Shown in pieces: positions 18,141 to 29,063 of a DNA stretch of 64,000 nt. The notes beneath the pieces are model-generated. The model did not search any database. It was not told the origin of the DNA and worked only from the letters and a program-made list of their open reading frames with translations. The stretch comes from a virus. The stretch is taken from IMG/VR virus record IMGVR_UViG_3300043811_000226, one strand, 5' to 3'. How positions within the stretch are numbered: position 1 is the first letter of the stretch; the number at the start of each line of letters is the position of its first letter. The translations under genes were made by a program, and so were the position numbers.

Positions 18141-19164
18141 CTACGCGGAGCGAACGATCATGTCCTCCTTCTTGACGGCGCACTCGAGCATGCGCTGTGT
18201 GTCATCGGGGGACGTGTTGCTGGCCACGCCGACGAAGGCGCCTTCTTCGTCGGTGACGACAACAACGATGCGTCCGCCCTTTGGCATCTGCCAAACAGTG
18301 TCATCAACCACGCCTCGCGCAAAGGAGGCCAGCTCCTTCCGTGTAGCAGGCCTTGGCGGCTTCTTTTTGGGCGGCTCCTCGGAAATAGGTCCTTGCCTGT
18401 AGCTGTTCGGCACTTGATGAAGGACCTGTCCTACGCATCCGATGTCCTTCCAGCTCGTGCCATGCACCGTAGGGGAGGACGTTACGCAGGTGACGAGGAC
18501 GTCGGCACCATCAGGTGTGGTGTACTTGCAGGAGCCTCCGACCTTGGCCTGGCTGTACGAGAACCAGCCATAGAGCTTCTCGCTGGGGTCCTTCTGCTTG
18601 CGTATCACAGTCCCAGCGCTCCCTTGGCAATCTGCTCAGCAGCCATAAAGGCTCGAGCACCCATCAGCACGAAGCGCTCTCGGTCGGCGCTGATAGCAAG
18701 GATGGCCTCGAGGGCCTTCTTCAAGTTCGCCGGTGCCTTGAAGCCCTTGCTGAAGAGAGCTGCCTTGATGTCGCCCGCGAGCTCAGGGTCGGCGTCCTTG
18801 TAGTCCTCAGCCAGCTCCCATAGGGCGCGCTGCGCATGCGGGTCCTTGAAGCTGAGTACGATCTTGCCAGCAGGCAAGTCGGGGTGCTTGTCACTCTTGA
18901 ACTCTCCCTCAATTAGATGATGGCCCATGGTGTCCTCCATGCTTCTTATGCCTTCTGCTCGTCGAGGGTTGCCTGCGCCTCTTCCTCGTCCTCTTCCCCA
19001 CCACGCCGATCACACTCTTCTACGAGTTCGTCGCGTGCACGCTCGAAGGCCAGGTACTCCTTCGAACCCTCCGCGATGTCGTCGGGGAACAGGTTGTCGC
19101 CGTTCTCCCGGAGGTAGTAGGCGAGCTCTCGAAGGAGCTTCTTCTTTGCACGGGCCTTGTTCAT
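18141..19164 (-). other. three hypothetical CDSs (18141-18608, 18605-18928, 18946-19164)
   Basis: RBSs present; 18605-18928 has an F.SDK.P...SFKDP.A..AL motif. Confidence 0.6.
18944..18972 (-). promoter_or_regulatory. phage bipartite promoter-like motif
   Basis: GCAACC-N-AGGCATAAGAAGCATGGAGG. Confidence 0.6.
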
Positions 19165-19175
19165 GTAGTTCCTCT

Positions 19176-19210
19176 GGCTAAAAGAAGAGGCGCGTATTGC
19201 GCACCCCTTC
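19176..19210 (-). terminator. intrinsic terminator with TTTTAGCC tail
   Basis: GAAGGGGTGCGC/GCGCCTCTTC imperfect stem. Confidence 0.6.
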
Positions 19211-19216
19211 CCTACT

Positions 19217-19786
19217 TCACTCCGGTGACCAGGTGGCTGACCAGAGCTGCTTCACCTGTGCTTCTCGCTCGGGAGACACGCTTCCCAAGTTGTACAGCAG
19301 CGCACGCGTATTACGCACCTCTGATGCCAGATGGTCCGCCCACGCTTTCTCCCACTGCGGGTTGTTCTTCTCTTGGAACCGACGCGCAAGAATGTGTCGG
19401 CGCATGGCGATGACCGCATCCTGTCCCAGCAACGTGTTCGTGAGAAGCGCGTTGATCTGGAGGATGCGCAGAAAGAGCTCCAGGATCTCGAGGAAAGGGT
19501 ACTCGCGCAACCTCAGTGCGAGCGCACGCGGGTCTCCCTTCGGAAGAACGTCGAGACTGAGAGGCGGTAGCGTGGACTGGCTCTTCGCGACTTGCGCGAG
19601 AGCCTGCACGACGTGCATGCGGTGCGGCTGGCACAGCCCGGAGCAGAGGGTCGTGAAGATCTTCTGATCCGAGCAGAGCGCGAGAGTAGCAGCGCAGTCT
19701 GCAGCGTCTTCCGTGTTCTTCGCGCGGCAGATGACGCATGCCTTGTTGTCTTCGGTGACGGTCGTCGGTACTTGGTGGGTGTTCAT
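19217..19786 (-). CDS. hypothetical protein with N-terminal Cys cluster
   Basis: GGAGG RBS; promoter motif at 19803-19831. Confidence 0.6.
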   Translation of the reverse strand: MNTHQVPTTVTEDNKACVICRAKNTEDAADCAATLALCSDQKIFTTLCSGLCQPHRMHVVQALAQVAKSQSTLPPLSLDVLPKGDPRALALRLREYPFLEILELFLRILQINALLTNTLLGQDAVIAMRRHILARRFQEKNNPQWEKAWADHLASEVRNTRALLYNLGSVSPEREAQVKQLWSATWSPE

Positions 19787-19802
19787 GAGGGGCCTCCAGT
19801 AC

Positions 19803-19831
19803 TCTTGTTCCCGAATCGTACCTTCTTTTGC
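19803..19831 (-). promoter_or_regulatory. phage bipartite promoter-like motif
   Basis: GCAAAAG-N11-CGGGAACAAGA. Confidence 0.6.
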
Positions 19832-19872
19832 CTAAAAAGAAGGCCCCCGCCGCCATAGCGGAGAGGGCCTTC
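19830..19872 (-). terminator. intrinsic terminator closing the RAMP/array locus
   Basis: GAAGGCCC...GGGCCTTC stem followed by TTTTTAGGC on the minus strand. Confidence 0.7.
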
Positions 19873-19874
19873 AA

Positions 19875-20449
19875 GGCAGGGCGGGACTCGAACTGGCACG
19901 TCACGCGCTACGGGTCGACGTGGCATGTCTAGCGGGCGGGCTTGTGCAGGCGCGGCTTGTCACCTCGCGTAGTAAGGGGTGGGGTGGGCTTGTCACCTAG
20001 ACGCGGTATGAGAAGATTGGGCTCGTCGCGAGGAAGGACGCGGTCGGACGGGACTTCGGCATGGTTCGTCGCCAGGGATGTTCCGACTGGGGTTGGCTTG
20101 TCACACGGCTGGCCTGGGCATGGTTTGTCATGTCGGGATGGTGGAGTACGACACGTCGCACGTGATGGAGCGACTTGGCGCAAGATGGCTCGTCACCTGG
20201 GCAGGTCCTATGAGACTAGGCATGTCGCTGGGGACGACTGGACTTGGCTCGTCGAGGGGGGGGGGGGTGTGTGGCTAGTCTTGGCACGTCACGAGGCATT
20301 GTTCGGGACGGAATGTCTCCTGGCCTGGAAGATCACGGTGTGGTCAGGGATGTCATTCTGGTGCGACTCGGAGTGGAGAGGCTTGTCTCGTGGAAGGGAT
20401 CGGGTTGGGCAGAGAAAGCTCGTCGCCGAGGCTAGTACTGGTGCGTCGC
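19875..20449. repeat. pentamer-register repeat array, downstream of the RAMP gene; candidate guide-RNA array
   Basis: 18 GTCRY-type anchors from 19900 to 20445; all 17 spacings equal 2 or 3 mod 5; filled with G[G/A]N-NN pentamers. Confidence 0.88.
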
Positions 20450-21223
20450 TCAGTTCTCGGCGGAGGCTTCGGAGGGCGCCTTCTTCTTACCGCCCTTCTC
20501 CTTCTTCTCCCCATTCGAGGCTTCGTCCTTGTCCTCATCCTTGGTCGTGACCTTCACCTTCTGCACCACGGTGAAGTCGGCGACGTCGAACTTGCCCATG
20601 CCCTGACTGCGGTCGGCGCCGATGCCGTCCTCCTGACCGAACGTGAGCATCTCGACGATGTCCTTCTCGCCGAGGTAGCGTGAGTCGCTCGGGTGGGTCT
20701 TGAGCACCCAGATCTCGAAGGTGAGCTCGACGCCCTCGCAGTAGTCGACCTTCTTCAGGGCCGTGCGCGGGCCCAGCGGCGTCTGCACGTGGATGGGACC
20801 TTCCTCGTTGCCGTCGGGCTCCTTGCGGTCGAGATAGTGGCGCTGGCCGCCATCCATGGCCTTGATCTCGAAGCCGTGCTGGAGCAGGTCTTTCGACCCG
20901 CGCTTGTTCTTGGTGAAGCGCAACATGGTCGCGCACTCCTTGAAGAGCGCCTTGATCTGCCGCGATTCGATGAACAGGCCCTTCTCCGGGTCGGCCTTGA
21001 ACGTGTTCCAGCTCTTCTCGGTGACCTTGTCGGTCAGGTCCTTGAGCGCTTCCTGGGTCTGGACCTCGGTCTGCTTGTCGTCGAAGCCGGTGCCGGCCTT
21101 GATCCAGTCCTTGATGAGGTCCGGGTTCTTCGGGAAGCCGCCGCAGATCTTCTCGCGGAAGCGGACGGTCACCTTGTAGATGTCGTAGAGAGCGCGGGAC
21201 GAGAAGTCGTGGGTCGTGGTCAT
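20450..21223 (-). CDS. solitary Cas7/Csm3-like RAMP-superfamily protein
   Basis: N-terminal strand YKVTVRFREKICGG, IESRQIKALFKECA (IPGSSLKG-like), C-terminal G-rich loop GIGADRSQGMGKFDV; AGGAG RBS. Confidence 0.8.
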   Translation of the reverse strand: MTTTHDFSSRALYDIYKVTVRFREKICGGFPKNPDLIKDWIKAGTGFDDKQTEVQTQEALKDLTDKVTEKSWNTFKADPEKGLFIESRQIKALFKECATMLRFTKNKRGSKDLLQHGFEIKAMDGGQRHYLDRKEPDGNEEGPIHVQTPLGPRTALKKVDYCEGVELTFEIWVLKTHPSDSRYLGEKDIVEMLTFGQEDGIGADRSQGMGKFDVADFTVVQKVKVTTKDEDKDEASNGEKKEKGGKKKAPSEASAEN

Positions 21224-21258
21224 GAGGTTGTTCTCCTAGGTGGGGGAAAAAGGAAGAA

Positions 21259-22037
21259 GGATAGGCAGGTATCGGCGTGGCCTGTCGCACGGAAGGGGTG
21301 CGGTTGGGCATGTCACGCAGGTGAGGCGAGCATCGGCGTAGATAGTCGCGAGGGCTTGTCCAAAGTCGACTTGTGTTGTCACAAGGGATTGGTGCAGATG
21401 GTCACGAGGCTTGGACGGACGCGGATAGTCGTGATGGCCCGTGACGGGTTGCTTCGGCATGTCGCAACGGTGTGACTAGTACTGGTCCGCGGCAGGTGTG
21501 GTCAGTCGCGGCGGCTTGAGTCGGCACGGCATGTCGCGCGGTTGGGTAAGGTGTGGTTAGTCGCCGAGACGAGGAAGGTCCTGGGTTGCGATGGGTAGTC
21601 GCCGTGGTTTGTTACGAGACGAATCGGCATGTCACCAAGGCAAAGGTTGGCGCGGCATGTCGCATCGGCGGGATATGGGAAGGCACGTCGCAACGGATAG
21701 AACAGGTTCGTCGCATGTCGAGGTGCGGTCCAGTTTGCCGCTACGGCAGGGGCGAAGTTAGAAACGGATCGTCGCGAAGACGTAGCTCAGGAAGGCAGGT
21801 CACCTAGACGAGAAAGGGATGACCAGTCGCGAAGGGGAGGACTGAAGAGACGAGGCATGTCGCGTGGTCCAGCATGCGTCGGATCGGCCCGTCGTGCAGG
21901 CGTGAATGGACTAGGTATGTCGCGAGGTCGGGATAGGGCTGGCTTGTCGCGCAGACTCGAGTGGGAATGGACTGTCGCCTGGTTCGGTAGGAAGTGGACT
22001 GTCACTACGGGACGGGTAGGGTTGGCTTGATTGTCCC
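21259..22037. repeat. pentamer-register repeat array, upstream of the RAMP gene; candidate guide-RNA array
   Basis: 25 anchors from 21284 to 22001; 22 of 24 spacings equal 2 or 3 mod 5; e.g. GGTTG GGTAA GGTGT GGTTA GTCGC at 21540-21564. Confidence 0.9.
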
Positions 22038-23277
22038 GTCAGTGAGATCGACGAACCCGACGAAGTAATACCTCCATCCCATGCCGTGCTCGGTGTCCTT
22101 GGGGTACTTCTCCGGCGGCTCCGTGAATGTGCAGCCCTCACCCACCTTCAAGAACTGCAGGTGGCCAAGGCTCGCGCTGTCCATGGCGATGTTCTGGAAT
22201 GCGGCCCATGTACCACCGCGCTCGCGCATCTGCTCGAGCGCTTCTTCTGCAGGCGTAGCGTCTCCCAGAAGAGGGTGCGGCTTGATCACGGAGAGGCCCT
22301 CAAGGCCGTGAGCAGCCGGTCGTACTTTAGGTACACCGACTCAATGCTCTCATCGGAGTTACGTAGACCTGCGTAGAAGCGAACACCTACGTCATCGATA
22401 ACGACCTGATCGATCTCTGTGCGCTCCACGTCTCCAAGGGCTTCTTCGAGCACCGAGTCACGCGACGAGTCAAGAAAGAGAAGTACCTCCTCCTGCTCGA
22501 ACGTCGCCAGCTCCGACGTGTTGAGCACATCTTCTAGATCAGCGTTCTCGTAGTAGCAACAGGCGGTGTCGTCGGCGAAGAACATGTCCCAGAGCCCGTC
22601 GTCCTTGCTCCGAACCATCTGAAAGAGCTCTTGACGTACAAGCAGCTTCTGGATGTTCTCCTTGCTGAGATCGACGACCGCGACTCCGTGCCATCCAAGA
22701 GTGGCGCCGTCCGTAGCACTCACTTCCAGAATGAACTTCATCAGAGTCTCCCTTCTGCGCGTATGCGCTGAACTTCCTTCGCGACGGCGATGAAACCCTT
22801 GGCGAGAAATGACTGTGTCCTACGCAGCTCACCCCACGAGGCAAGCCGTATGCGTATGCCGGTACCGCGCCTGTAGACCTCCCACAACTTCTTTGCGAGG
22901 CGTTCTACGCGTGCTTCCTCGAGCTTCTTGTTTGTCTTTTTGGCGGTCCTGTTCAACGGCATGATGAGCTCCTACAGGCGCCCCTCAGCGCGCAGCTTCT
23001 TCATGATGTCGGCGATGTCGAGGCACGAGTCGAGCCTGGAGAGCTCCCCGCGCTGAAAGAGCAGCTCGGTCACCTCGGCGGCGCTCGCGCCTTGCCCAGG
23101 GCCGTTGGTCTTGGACGCATCGCGCCACGCACGCAGGACCTTCTCCTCATAGGTCTCCCCGGGCCGGGTGGGAGTGAGGGTTGCCGCGGTCTTCTTTTTC
23201 ACGACCTGCGGGATGTAGTCGCGAGCACGCATAGAGCGAGGCGAGATGTCTTCGGATGGAACAGTACGAACGCGCAT
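22005..23277 (-). other. four hypothetical CDSs (22005-22289, 22286-22741, 22741-22962, 22972-23277)
   Basis: Coupled ORFs; the last two both end in RAEGRL. Confidence 0.6.
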
Positions 23278-24469: not shown

Positions 24470-25900
24470 CTACTGCAGCACCACCAAGTACTTCGAGCAG
24501 CGCGTGATGGCCGTGTAGATCCAGCGCTTCCAGTCGTCGTACGAGATGCGGTTCGGCTTCTCGGCCACCACCACAACGTGCTCGAATTGGCTGCCTTGGG
24601 CTTTGTGGCAGGTCAAGGCATAGCCGTAATCAAGCAGCAGCCCCACCTGGCTCCAGTTGTTCGGCCGATGTCCAGTGGCCGCGTGGTACTCATTGAAGTC
24701 CTTGAAGGTGGTCGGGTGGCCGAACTGCGGCGCGCTGATGCTGCCCGACACTTCAATCTCGTCATCCTCGAAGAGAACGCGCCCTTCGTAGACGTACCGA
24801 GCGCTTTCCTCGATCTCCTGGATGGTGCCGCGCATCCCGTTGAAGATAGTGGCGTCGGTATTGCGGAGACAGATGACCTGGTCGTCGACTTGTGGAGGAT
24901 CAGCCCATGACGACTCCCAGCGCGTAACACGCGCTCGGTTGTTCAAGTCAACGCGAGTCTCATTCTTGTAGCAAAGCATCGCCACGTCGTCGTAGCGCAC
25001 GCCCGGCGCCGTGAAGAGCTTCTGCGCAACCTCGTTGACCTGGTTGTGCTCGAGCACCTGCACCTCTTCGCAGTCGGCCATCCTCGGTACCTGTCCCGTA
25101 CGCCGCACGAACTCGCTGAGCGCGAGGATGGGGCTGTCCTCAGCTTGCCTGTGGATGGTCTCGAGCTTCAGGTGCGGCTTGTCCATCAGGCTGAAGCTGC
25201 CGAAGACCGGTGGCAGCTGCCCGTGATCGCCGACCGCGAGTATGGGGATGCCGTAGCTCTGGAGGTCGGTGAAGAGCTCCTCGTTGAGCATCGAGGCCTC
25301 GTCGACGACGATGAGGTCGTAGGGCAGCCTCTGGCGCTTCTTCCATCCGCGAATGCCTCCCGTCTTCTCGTTCGGGATGGGGTAGTAGATAAGGCTGTGC
25401 AGGGTGCCGATGTCGAAGGCGCCCTTGACGATATTTGCCTCGTAGAATTTCTTTCTTAGTACCGACGTCGCCTTGCCGGTGAAGGCGCAGAAGGCGGCCT
25501 GCACATCGAGGTACTTGTTGGCGAACACCGAGAGCAGCGTGCTCTTACCCGTACCTGCGTAGCCGCCGACCTTGAGCAGGTCGCTCTCCTTTCGCTCATA
25601 CCATTTGCTCATGGTGTCGAAGACCTCCCGTTGCTCCTTCGAGAGGCTGTTCTCGGTGAGCTTGCCGCCCATCTTGCGCTCGACCTCGTTGAGCAGCTCA
25701 TGCGGCTTCTTGTCCGTCTTGGGGACGAACTTGAACCGGTAGTCGCTGGTGGGCTTGTCCTCCTTTGGAGGCGTCTCAAAATCAGGCGTGGGAGCCCCAG
25801 TGTACGGGTTTGTATACTTGCTCTTGGTAACGCTGGCAGCGTGCTGCCTGAACGAGCCAACCGCATTGAAGTTCGACTTGTCGTTCTTACCGAAACTCAT
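24470..25900 (-). CDS. SF1B helicase (Dda/RecD2-like)
   Basis: GYAGTGKST, DEASM, GDHGQLPPV, YALTCHKAQGSQF, YTAITR. Confidence 0.93.
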   Translation of the reverse strand: MSFGKNDKSNFNAVGSFRQHAASVTKSKYTNPYTGAPTPDFETPPKEDKPTSDYRFKFVPKTDKKPHELLNEVERKMGGKLTENSLSKEQREVFDTMSKWYERKESDLLKVGGYAGTGKSTLLSVFANKYLDVQAAFCAFTGKATSVLRKKFYEANIVKGAFDIGTLHSLIYYPIPNEKTGGIRGWKKRQRLPYDLIVVDEASMLNEELFTDLQSYGIPILAVGDHGQLPPVFGSFSLMDKPHLKLETIHRQAEDSPILALSEFVRRTGQVPRMADCEEVQVLEHNQVNEVAQKLFTAPGVRYDDVAMLCYKNETRVDLNNRARVTRWESSWADPPQVDDQVICLRNTDATIFNGMRGTIQEIEESARYVYEGRVLFEDDEIEVSGSISAPQFGHPTTFKDFNEYHAATGHRPNNWSQVGLLLDYGYALTCHKAQGSQFEHVVVVAEKPNRISYDDWKRWIYTAITRCSKYLVVLQ

Positions 25901-26297: not shown

Positions 26298-29035
26298 TCT
26301 TCGCAGGCGTGTGGGTTGGGAGACGGGTTACCGACTTTGCGCTCGTACTCGCACGCCAGGCACACCTCCGGCGCAACGAAGAGTTTCTTCAACGCCTCGT
26401 TGGTCTTGATGCGCACCTCTTCTCGAGCGGGAGTTGAATCCTCCGAGTAGAAGCTGATGTGAAACGAGTCCGGCGTGCACCAGAACTTGCCCCCGAACCC
26501 TAAGCGGCCCATGAAGCGAAACTCTGTCGTCTCGTACGGGTTCTCGCTCCAGGCTACATGCCGTTGTACAAAGTACTCTCGGTTACTCTCAGGCGCGCCT
26601 GCGTTTGCTACCAGCGCGCTGTAAACTTTGTCGAACAGCTCATGAGTCCTTGGTCGCTGAAGCGGCATGTGATCCTACTTCTCCTTGATGACGATCTTGC
26701 TCCACACGATGAGCACGTGGTCGGGGCTAGGGGGTTCGTCTTCTTTGTACTCGCCGAGCCACCACTCGGGACCGAGCATCCTGGCCTCGGTCTCGTCGAC
26801 CTTGTTCTCGAAGCGCAGACCGCCACAGTTGACGTTCCGCTTCCAGCGCTTGCCGACGGTCTTGCCTGTTGGAATCGACGTCGAGTACTCGCCAAGAGAG
26901 TCGAACTCCGCTTGCGTCAGTTCCACCAACCGTGGCGATGATGACATAGGTCTCTCCTGTTGCCGCCGTGAAAGACGCACCGACGAGGTTCATTCCATCG
27001 AACATCTTCTCGTAGATCTGCAGCGTGACACTGGCATCCTCCGGCGCGTAAAGCTGCAGCTGGTGCTGACCGTAGTTCTGTGCGAACTGCAAGAGCTTGC
27101 CTTGCTGGCGCACTTTGAACTCCACGGATGTGAAGCTGCCGATGGTCCCGTCCCAAAACCCGCTCGGGATGGAGACGGACGGGTCGATCATCTTGCGTTC
27201 GGTCTCCCGAACGAGATTCGCAAACTTATCCTCCGGCGTCAGATGAACGATGGAGCGTTCAACCATCTCCGGCGTCAGAGCGGTCATTCTTCTTGATCTG
27301 GGCAAGTTCTTCCTCCTGCTCCTTCGCCTTTCGCTTCTCGTACTCCTCGATCATGTTCTTGTAGCGTCTTAGGGTGAGGGTGCTACCGAAGCCCATCATC
27401 CTGAGCTGCGTTTCTCGGAGCAGCTTGTTCTTCTCCTTGAGGAGAGGAAGCGCGTTCTGGATGCCCTGACGACCGAGCATGTTGATAGTGTTGAGCAGGT
27501 GCCGGTCGTCCATCAACTCAATGCGCGTGATGCGGCCGTTCTTGCTGCGCCAGTAGTGCGGGTCCTTGAGTTTCGGCTTCGTCTCCTCGTCGTAGTGCTG
27601 AAGAAGCTCGGCAAGTTCGGCGCCATCGTTGTAGTAATCGCTCATCTCTCCCATTGTTTACTCCCCGTAGAGCACCTTGCGGATGGAGTCGATGCGCGAA
27701 AAGAGCTGCTCCATGATGACCATGGTACTTCCTCCCTCATGGTTGTGGGGGGAGAGCCAGTCGTAGAGCTCTTCCAGCGACCGGCAGAGAAACTCGAGGT
27801 CGCTGCGGTACGGTGGGAAGTGCGCCGGCGCGTAGAGGTTCAGACGCTTCTGCAACTCCGCCCAGGACTCCGGCGTGATCTGCCCTGCCTGACTCTCCTG
27901 CATGACCTGCCACGCGCTATTGGCCACCATGGCTGCGATGCGGTAGCTGCGGAGCAGCGTGACAATCTTCTCGGCGCTCTTCTGCGTACCAACCTGCATA
28001 ATGAAGGCGCCCATCTGGGCTTCGTCGAGCTTCTCGAGGTCCCGGATCTCGCCTTCCTTCATCCACGTCGTTCGGCTCATGGAGTCTCCTTGGATGCCTG
28101 ATACAAATCCCAGCAAGGTGTGTGGTACACCGCACCAATCTTGCTCCAGCACGAGTAGCTGCCTGGCAAGATCATGGTGCGACACAGCTGGCACTTGACC
28201 GGCTGCGATAGAAGAACCCTTCTCGGGACCTCTTTGGTTGTGGACTGCGCCGTGCGCCTCGCGCGGACCTCGGCAGCTACTTGCTCCTCACGCGCGCGCC
28301 TTGTGGCGGCAGCAAGCATGTCGTTGATAGAAGAGAGGTCCGAGAAGATGTCTGAGAAGTCTACCGATGGCGGAGGAGGCTTGGGTGAGTTCATGTCGAG
28401 CAGCTTGTGCTCGACAATGAGCTTGCAGGCGATGACGGCCATCGAACGCTGCTCCTCCCCTTCGGGCAGTCCGTTGACCATCGCGAGCAGTCGTCGGACC
28501 CGCTCTCTGTAGTCGGGCACGGCTACTGAAGCTGCGCGCGCGCGGCGACCTTCAACATCTCGGAGACGGCCTTCAGGATTTCTGGCAGGCTGCATTCGCT
28601 GTCTGCGTCATGCGTCCTGGCGTGTGCCTCCGCCTCGCGAGCGAACTCCTCTGCCGCAGTGGTCAGCTCGTCGGCGTTGAAGCCGTGCAAGAGGCCAGGC
28701 ATCTTCTTCTGCACTGCTTCCAGAAATGGCTTGGCCTCCCAGCTGTCACCCGAAGCATCCATGATCCGGTTGAACAGTGCCTTCGTTCGAGGGTTGAACT
28801 TGAGCGCCGCGGGATGAGCACCCTGAGGGCGTAGATGTCCTGGTAGCGCAGACAATGGGTTCTCTTCTCGGAGAACCCCGAAGAGGATCGATCCATCGTC
28901 CTGGTCATGCAGCTGGAAGGTGTAGCCGTCCGCATCCAGCTTGTTCGCCGCCGTCTCGATGGCCGCGGCATACGTCGGCATCTTCTTGTTGTACTGCACA
29001 CCGACGACGCGAAACTTCTTCTTCTCTGAGGTCAC
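26294..29035 (-). other. run of hypothetical CDSs (26294-26668, 26675-26947, about 26727-27287, 27259-27654, 27658-28080, 28077-28595, 28523-29035)
   Basis: RBSs and ORF packing; some starts uncertain. Confidence 0.5.
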
Positions 29036-29063
29036 TGGCTCCTCCTTGGGGGACAGAGCGCGC

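Follow-up and report, generated by a model that had tools for sequence, protein, structure and literature searches.

A lone Cas7-like RAMP gene in a 64-kb viral sequence adjoins a punctuated array of short, five-base-phased units that is probably a VIPR-type guide array

The 64,000-nucleotide stretch of viral DNA analyzed here (the window; IMG/VR virus record IMGVR_UViG_3300043811_000226) encodes a lone Cas7-like RAMP protein of 257 amino acids (P0001), and directly downstream of its gene lies a noncoding array of 18 short units at positions 19873-20449. We propose, with a probability of roughly 85%, that this array is a guide array of the VIPR type, whichever of its two strands is the RNA. 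In VIPR, a phage-borne lone RAMP of ancestral type (Vipr) acts with vrRNAs built of YNNGG pentamers; one protomer sits on each repeat and sequesters GGY, and the NN bases pair with double-stranded DNA, one base being skipped per repeat, to repress rival elements (bioRxiv 10.64898/2026.04.26.720920). Seven types have been described, with the related motifs NNNGG, YNNNG and NNNNG and with "staggered" contiguous arrays (bioRxiv 10.64898/2026.04.26.720920). The structures are given in bioRxiv 10.64898/2026.04.26.720927, and the Protein Data Bank (PDB) holds a sequence entry, 36pp, named "SUSP1 Vipr protein". VIPR has been proposed as the ancestor of the CRISPR RAMPs, and experiments have so far dealt with a few long guides on the strand of the gene. 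The locus described here has a lone RAMP gene and flanking tracts of GG(Y)NN pentamers, and it is therefore filed as VIPR-type: the gene stands outside any CRISPR-cas locus, and the intergenic GGY/NN pentamer tracts are found on the + strand.

Read on the + strand, each unit consists of a linker of 2-3 nucleotides (nt), two to six variable GGYNN pentamers, a tail pentamer GGCWY and an anchor GTCRC. The units thus hold 4-8 pentamers overall and are 23-43 nt long. The near-invariant pre-anchor pentamer and the anchor form a constant tail of about 10 nt, GGCWY-GTCRC. A preliminary inspection of the DNA letters (the sequence-only reading) had listed 18 anchors, and we found every one of them at the coordinates it gave. 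Their spacings are 27, 32, 33, 33, 43, 32, 27, 28, 37, 32, 27, 37, 27, 37, 33, 37 and 23 nt. As that reading had also claimed, all 17 are 2 or 3 mod 5, for which the chance value is (2/5)^17 = 1.7e-7, uncorrected for the post hoc choice of the rule. This rule arises because the linker of 2-3 nt moves the five-base phase by half a period; a unit is an anchor of 5 nt plus a linker of 2-3 nt plus 5n.

The last anchor (GTCGC, 20445-20449) lies directly against the reverse-complemented TGA (20450-20452, minus strand) of the RAMP gene (20450-21223), so that the earlier statement that the array starts right after this stop codon holds. At the other end the array does run up to a terminator hairpin, but the position given for the hairpin (19830-19872) and the gap of 2 nt had to be corrected: the stem occupies 19839-19872, and the first unit begins at 19873, 1 nt past it.

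The five-base rhythm can be seen without any choice of anchors. Indeed, the autocorrelation of G at lag 5 was +0.24 in the downstream array (z = 5.8 versus shuffles) and reached z = 8.0 in a second, upstream array on the other side of the gene, and these are the top two lag-5 regions of the 64 kb. The RAMP gene between the arrays has a period of 3, as coding DNA does. When the units of the downstream array were cut in fives on the + strand and right-aligned to the anchor, G occupied position 1 in 79 of the 89 non-anchor pentamers (p = 6e-21 against a background of 41% G). The resulting logo shows G at positions 1 (0.89) and 2 (0.65), a pyrimidine at position 3 (0.62) and variable bases at positions 4 and 5. 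G peaks at -5, -10 and every fifth position to -30 before the anchors (0.80-1.00) and at +7/8, +12/13 and onward after them, and the phase is coherent when read from either end of a unit; in unit 6 it is partly lost.

We considered whether the anchors might instead be binding sites at the DNA level, set at half-helical-turn spacing in an iteron or centromere-like array, as in P1 repA (incC/incA), F repE and the parS arrays that flank the gene of their binder. The locus has the general layout of such a system, with direct repeats of about 10 bp on both sides of a gene of about 250 codons and a Dda-like helicase gene 3 kb off, and the spacings (27, 32/33, 37 and 43) cluster at multiples of about 5.4 bp, half a turn of DNA. 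However, site spacing leaves the five-base phasing between the anchors (G in 79/89) unexplained, and the strand asymmetry of the downstream array (41% G, 22% C) is typical of an RNA-level element. We regard this explanation as very improbable, the more so in view of the protein fold and of the pattern of conservation described below. Folding of the RNA of both strands of both arrays gave z values from -0.6 to +1.0, that is, no selection for or against structure. As expected, an unstructured RNA on either strand fits a protein-coated linear guide.

The arrays evolve quickly, and comparison with a relative shows which bases are kept. The closest relative, L001, is a 192.8-kb metagenomic contig encoding a protein 91% identical to P0001 (L002 and L003 are the same genome, 99.95% identical, and offer no additional comparison). 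Between the window and L001 the DNA of the RAMP gene is 91.6% identical and the flanking genes are 74-89% identical; by blastn, about 30% of the downstream array and 28% of the upstream array could be aligned. The sequence-only reading had named gain or loss of units among related phages, and its polarity, as a check. Whole-unit insertions or deletions and one transposed unit were indeed found. The L001 homologue of unit 11 directly follows that of unit 6, units 7-10 (about 108 nt) having been gained in the window or lost in L001, and the 3' part of unit 15 recurs unchanged at a different relative position. No polarity was visible, the shared units lying in the middle of the array.

Within the retained units, bases had changed at position 1 in 2/42 cases, at position 2 in 13/43, at position 3 in 7/44, at position 4 in 4/47 and at position 5 in 0/47; the corresponding figures were 8/22 for the linker and 5/13 for position 4 of the anchor. 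The variable NN positions had thus changed in 4/94 cases versus 20/87 for positions 2-3 (p = 3e-4). The NN bases are therefore those that are under purifying selection and bear the information; bases 2-3 of the core tolerate change and the linker is free. Such conservation of NN is in agreement with a guide code. This position dependence is a separate line of evidence for a guide code that is noncontiguous, and it counts against simple binding-site arrays, which leave conserved positions 4-5 beside drifting positions 2-3 unexplained.

The protein itself points in the same direction. An AlphaFold (AF2) model of P0001 built from 36 homologues (pLDDT 81.5) matched only Cas7-type RAMPs, namely, Csm3, Cmr4 and type VII Cas7 (Foldseek E 2e-7), and VIA-align placed it on Csm3 with a Z score of 12.0-12.7 over residues 11-225. 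The model thus predicts a Cas7/Csm3 RAMP fold, an RNA-binding fold and not that of a winged-helix initiator or of ParB, as binding-site arrays would call for. The C-terminal tail of P0001 is rich in K and E, and its G-rich loop reads GIGADRSQGMGKF; PADLOC returned weak Csm4 and Cas6 matches at the glycine-rich loop. Searches of Pfam and PHROGs with the RAMP and its neighbors gave no family for P0001, and a search of its sequence against the PDB gave no match. The family counts 128 close relatives and 1537 representatives at 50% identity, and its Atlas clusters are 88-100% viral. The RAMP is the sole gene common to 25 related loci, with no conserved accessory gene adjoining it. Library scans of the locus and comparison of these 25 loci revealed no cas genes or other conserved neighbors. 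Overall, the Cas7/Csm3 fold, the five-base code and the turnover of units support the earlier view of a guide-like unit array serving the adjacent RAMP gene.

By analogy with VIPR, P0001 would polymerize on RNA made of five-base repeats, holding G-G-Y of each and exposing the two variable bases. The exposed NN pairs would together read a double-stranded DNA target, every third base being skipped, and so silence a competing mobile element. The half-period phase shift at each linker would stop a protein filament from crossing a unit boundary, and each unit would therefore probably be a separate small ribonucleoprotein (RNP). We infer by this analogy that the units may be RNA guides that are processed at their anchors and bind DNA by the skip rule. 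When we searched for targets in the rest of the window and in the loci of the 25 relatives, matches to NN with skips of 0-3 showed no excess over shuffled-order controls, and triplets of positions 3-5 with skips of 0-3 gave no excess in the window or in the same loci. With 8-14 specified bases per query, large collections would yield hundreds of chance matches. Reading NN as codon positions 1-2 gave no recognizable motif.

The upstream array, of about 25 units of 23-43 nt apart from one of 61 nt, has the same architecture, an identical pentamer logo and an identical tail. The sequence-only reading had described the downstream array as more degenerate in its anchors and longer in its units, perhaps older or serving a different guide class. 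Neither difference proved significant: anchors of the GTCRC form number 12/18 downstream versus 22/25 upstream, a trend only (p = 0.13), and mean unit length is 32.1 versus 31.2 nt (p = 0.35). Logo and tail are shared and the alignable fraction is alike (30% versus 28%), so that a greater age or a separate guide class finds no support. We see the two arrays as one system. A further explanation is that the downstream array is a decaying or regulatory by-product, either a protein sponge that arose by unit duplication or an antisense tuner of the RAMP gene or of the upstream guides. Its somewhat more degenerate anchors, a unit 13 with a run of 12 G residues and a broken anchor, the partial loss of phase in unit 6 and the shortness of the guides would all suit a by-product, as would the lack of an RNA contig on this array, though such absence is not evidence. 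Yet its pentamer phasing is as strong as that of the sister array, NN is under purifying selection in the retained units, and the downstream position is functional in the family, being that of the only array in L004, L011, L012, L016, L024 and Mae-JY09. We thus consider a by-product improbable, and a guide array remains the explanation that we retain.

To see how general this organization is, we surveyed 30 arrays in 25 loci with protein identity down to 24%. In 30/30 arrays the C-rich strand is that of the gene and the G-rich strand lies opposite, and the anchors are of the GTCG type (GTCGC, GTCGAAT or GTCGG). Median unit length is 25-41.5 nt (mostly 28-34 nt), and lengths are chiefly 3 mod 5. 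The pooled logo of 708 pentamers reads G (0.84), G (0.61), Y (0.52), N, N; across the family, position 3 favors pyrimidines only weakly. One member, L027, is the cultured Microcystis phage Mae-JY09 (PP395641, 37713-38976; 29% identity), in which a G-phased array antisense to the gene reaches the right end of the deposited genome and has a GC-rich hairpin at its far end. Several units of L008 (3300-3800) have a nearly identical copy next to them in tandem that differs in a few bases, and this arrangement suggests that duplication may be one source of new units. In the distant relative L017 (1250-2050), the array is divided into sub-arrays by perfect palindromes around ATGGCCATGGCCAT; these read identically on either strand and might form hairpins for processing or termination.

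As to which strand is the guide RNA, we give the G-rich + strand slightly better than even odds, and the C-rich minus strand a smaller but serious share, the rest going to other readings. On the G-rich strand the GG(Y)NN code stands in the positions described for the published guides, and, as in those guides, the constant tail comes after the variable tract. If the guides came instead from the minus strand, as the 3' trailer and 5' leader of the RAMP mRNA, the unit would be 5'-GYGAC followed by (NNRCC)n and the linker, with a short 5' handle like that of a CRISPR RNA, and the bases held by the protein would be C-C instead of G-G. RNAs of the downstream array would then end at the terminator at 19834-19872. 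This mirror code, possible although the less probable of the two, is in good agreement with the layout of the window: stop codon and array adjoin directly, and the sole terminator, a minus-strand one, comes 1 nt past the last unit. Furthermore, with only 35 nt between the upstream array and the start codon, transcription of the gene must cross that array, and the uniform orientation of the 30/30 arrays, whichever side of the gene they occupy, would be most natural under co-transcription. The cores GAC and CAC, which do not follow GGY, are reported for other VIPR-like clusters (VIPR preprints). Against it, a complement that shows G-G and a weak Y at the published positions would have to be a coincidence.

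The transcription signals bear on the same question. The terminator of the window was found by a terminator scan and an RNAfold scan (-26.8 kcal/mol) and is kept in L001; on the + strand, no T-run follows the hairpin at 19839-19872. When terminators were mapped in 13 loci, a strong sense terminator after the array was present only in the window and L001. In L006 (3290-3345), L011 (3164-3230) and L016 (3206-3280), strong terminator-like hairpins on the gene strand (-25 to -32 kcal/mol, with T-rich runs after them) separate the downstream array from the RAMP stop codon. The array there is therefore not simply the trailer of the gene, and co-transcription, on which the mirror code would depend, is not general. 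A long untranslated C-rich, G-poor RNA is a classic substrate of Rho-dependent termination, and a mirror-code transcript would presumably be one. That the whole family (1537 clusters at 50% identity) uses a mirror VIPR code, NNRCC with a 5' handle of 7-8 nt cut from the mRNA leader and trailer, seems to us possible but less likely than not.

No promoter-like site was detected on either strand of the locus, which would suit co-transcription with the gene without deciding the strand. Indeed, a sigma-70 promoter scan of the locus in the window found none, matches in the AT-richer loci L019, L020 and L017 were at chance level, and an antisense match inside the 5' end of the gene in L020, facing the array, was not above background. 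A search of Rfam with the locus (E <= 1) and with the loci of 20 relatives detected two tRNAs in L023 and otherwise neither ribozymes nor other known RNAs. In a soil metatranscriptome from 2016, contigs more than 99% identical to the window cover part of the RAMP gene (20977-21168) and of the upstream array (21261-21498), the latter stopping 2 nt short of the gene-proximal edge of that array; these contigs come from a single run and are unstranded, and DNA carry-over is possible.

Several points weigh against the assignment to VIPR. Homology of P0001 to the SUSP1/X1U2U4 Vipr family is not established: alignment of the P0001-family profile to the SUSP1-family profile of 26 sequences by hhalign gave a probability of 6% (E 0.006) and covers only helix 1 and the G-loop, in the right order, and alignment to SUSP1 Vipr alone gave 0.1%. 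In the same low-confidence alignment, the residues that read G1 and G2 in SUSP1, D177 and W178, fall on A203 and D204, and this lack of conservation also speaks for the mirror code. A unit offers 4-12 variable guide bases, which is little for unique recognition of DNA; a possibility is that many small RNPs act cooperatively on a single rival genome and so gain specificity. In addition, the strand with visible transcription signals, that of the gene, is C-rich and does not carry the published code. The metatranscriptome run has no contig on the downstream array, which is uninformative either way.

The features of the locus are collected in Table 1.

Table 1. Coordinates of the arrays, the RAMP gene and associated elements in the window
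Feature	Coordinates	Strand	Basis
Downstream array, 18 units	19873..20449	+ (G-rich)	Anchor positions, pentamer logo, lag-5 phasing
Unit ends (anchor pentamers), units 1-9	19904, 19931, 19963, 19996, 20029, 20072, 20104, 20131, 20159		
Unit ends (anchor pentamers), units 10-18	20196, 20228, 20255, 20292, 20319, 20356, 20389, 20426, 20449		
Units 4 (part), 5 and 6, retained in L001, 74% identity	19969..20077	+	blastn and alignment
Unit 11, retained in L001, 86% identity	20185..20227	+	blastn and alignment
Unit 15, 3' part, 100% identical, different relative position in L001 (transposed)	20334..20354	+	blastn
G12 homopolymer within unit 13	20256..20267	+	Direct sequence reading
Lone Cas7-like RAMP (Vipr-like), P0001, 257 amino acids	20450..21223	-	Model, fold matches
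RAMP leader, 35 nt with ribosome-binding site GGAGAA	21224..21258	-	Sequence; too short for a conventional promoter
Upstream sister array, about 25 units, same architecture	21259..22037	+	Logo, lag-5 phasing
Intrinsic terminator of the RAMP transcription unit	19834..19872	-	Stem 19872-19839, then TTTTT 19838-19834

Some further features lie within or around these elements. Besides the 18 anchors there is a degenerate, anchor-like 19th element within unit 13, GGCTA GTCTT (20273-20282), whose form suggests what is left of a unit boundary that was fused or has decayed. The entire downstream array is flanked by the arms of a 20-nt inverted repeat, which are 85% complementary (19833-19852/20470-20489); the first falls within the terminator and the second within the 3'-terminal part of the RAMP gene. 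This repeat may be due to chance, from runs of Lys codons and the A-tract of the terminator, or may be a long-range processing stem. The far end of the upstream array overlaps the stop codon of a minus-strand open reading frame (22005-22289). The gene for the Dda-like superfamily 1 helicase (24470-25900, minus strand; PHROG 325, E 1e-82), 3 kb upstream of the locus, is kept in L001 and absent beside the RAMP gene in the other relatives. Elsewhere in the window, repeats of 27 and 9 nt in tandem, with many GGTCC and GGAGC codons (58199-58413), resemble a collagen-like Gly-X-Y tract, probably in a fiber protein. Positions 19000-23000 showed no DNA similarity to any of 50,697 phage records, and no CRISPR-like repeats were found within the 64 kb.

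Taken as a guide system, the locus would stand for a large, mostly uncultured phage family in which dozens of very short guides are laid out in punctuated contiguous arrays flanking a lone Cas7-like gene. Within VIPR, this layout, a short constant element and a variable segment repeated many times, is the nearest to a CRISPR-like array. If the strand of the gene is the guide, the protein would read C-C instead of G-G and the code would be more plastic than published; were the mirror code true, the locus would carry dozens of mini-guides arrayed in repeat-spacer fashion, an organization intermediate between single vrRNAs and CRISPR arrays. RNAs of unit length would need to be cut without Cas6 or ribozymes. 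The cultured member of the family, Microcystis phage Mae-JY09, opens the way to experiments.

Compared with known systems, the locus is closest to that of Escherichia phage SUSP1 (KT454805), in which vipr occupies 28474-29061 on the minus strand and the gaps on either side of it are filled, on the vipr strand, by runs of 5-12 YNNGG pentamers that have structured tails. Both phages encode a lone small RAMP with an RRM core, a thumb and a G-loop and no cas genes, and in both the intergenic regions on the two sides of the gene are filled with five-base repeats consisting of two G residues, a Y-biased third base and two variable bases. In both, a constant tail comes after each variable tract, and the arrays evolve quickly. 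However, the vrRNAs of SUSP1 lie on the vipr strand, whereas the G-rich strand here is antisense to the gene. SUSP1 has four guides of 9-16 uninterrupted pentamers as published (5-12 as seen here), each with a structured tail of about 35 nt and its own signals. In contrast, the present locus has 18 + 25 contiguous units of two to six variable pentamers, an unstructured 10-nt tail and a linker of 2-3 nt that breaks the phase. The protein is longer (257 versus 195 amino acids for SUSP1 Vipr), and no conserved vap gene stands beside the P0001 gene, unlike in SUSP1 (vap1). With its short units, unstructured tail, antisense G-rich strand and lack of vap1, the locus thus departs from type II, the SUSP1-like type.

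The "staggered" vrRNA arrays of VIPR systems are contiguous, too. In the accessible part of the preprint, the legend of fig. S18 mentions a 1-nt overlap but leaves anchor sequence, unit length, strand and type unstated, and the staggered architecture stands outside those confirmed by small-RNA sequencing (bioRxiv 10.64898/2026.04.26.720920). In the portions of the VIPR preprints available to us, the text does not mention the short-unit architecture or the strand question. The system described here is probably of the kind published in 2026, within which it would belong to a distinct, short-unit, reversed-strand branch.

There is also a likeness to type III CRISPR systems. Csm3, Cmr4 and type VII Cas7 provide the closest solved folds (Z about 12). 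In both kinds of system, variable segments separated by a short constant element make up a long tandem array beside a RAMP gene, and the footprint of a backbone subunit quantizes the length of the unit. The constant element of CRISPR arrays is, however, 24-40 nt long and the quantum is 6, whereas here they are about 10 nt and 5. Unlike CRISPR spacers, the variable parts are coded in phased pentamers, the locus has no Cas1/Cas2, Cas6, Cas10 or other cas genes, and it belongs to a phage and not to a host.

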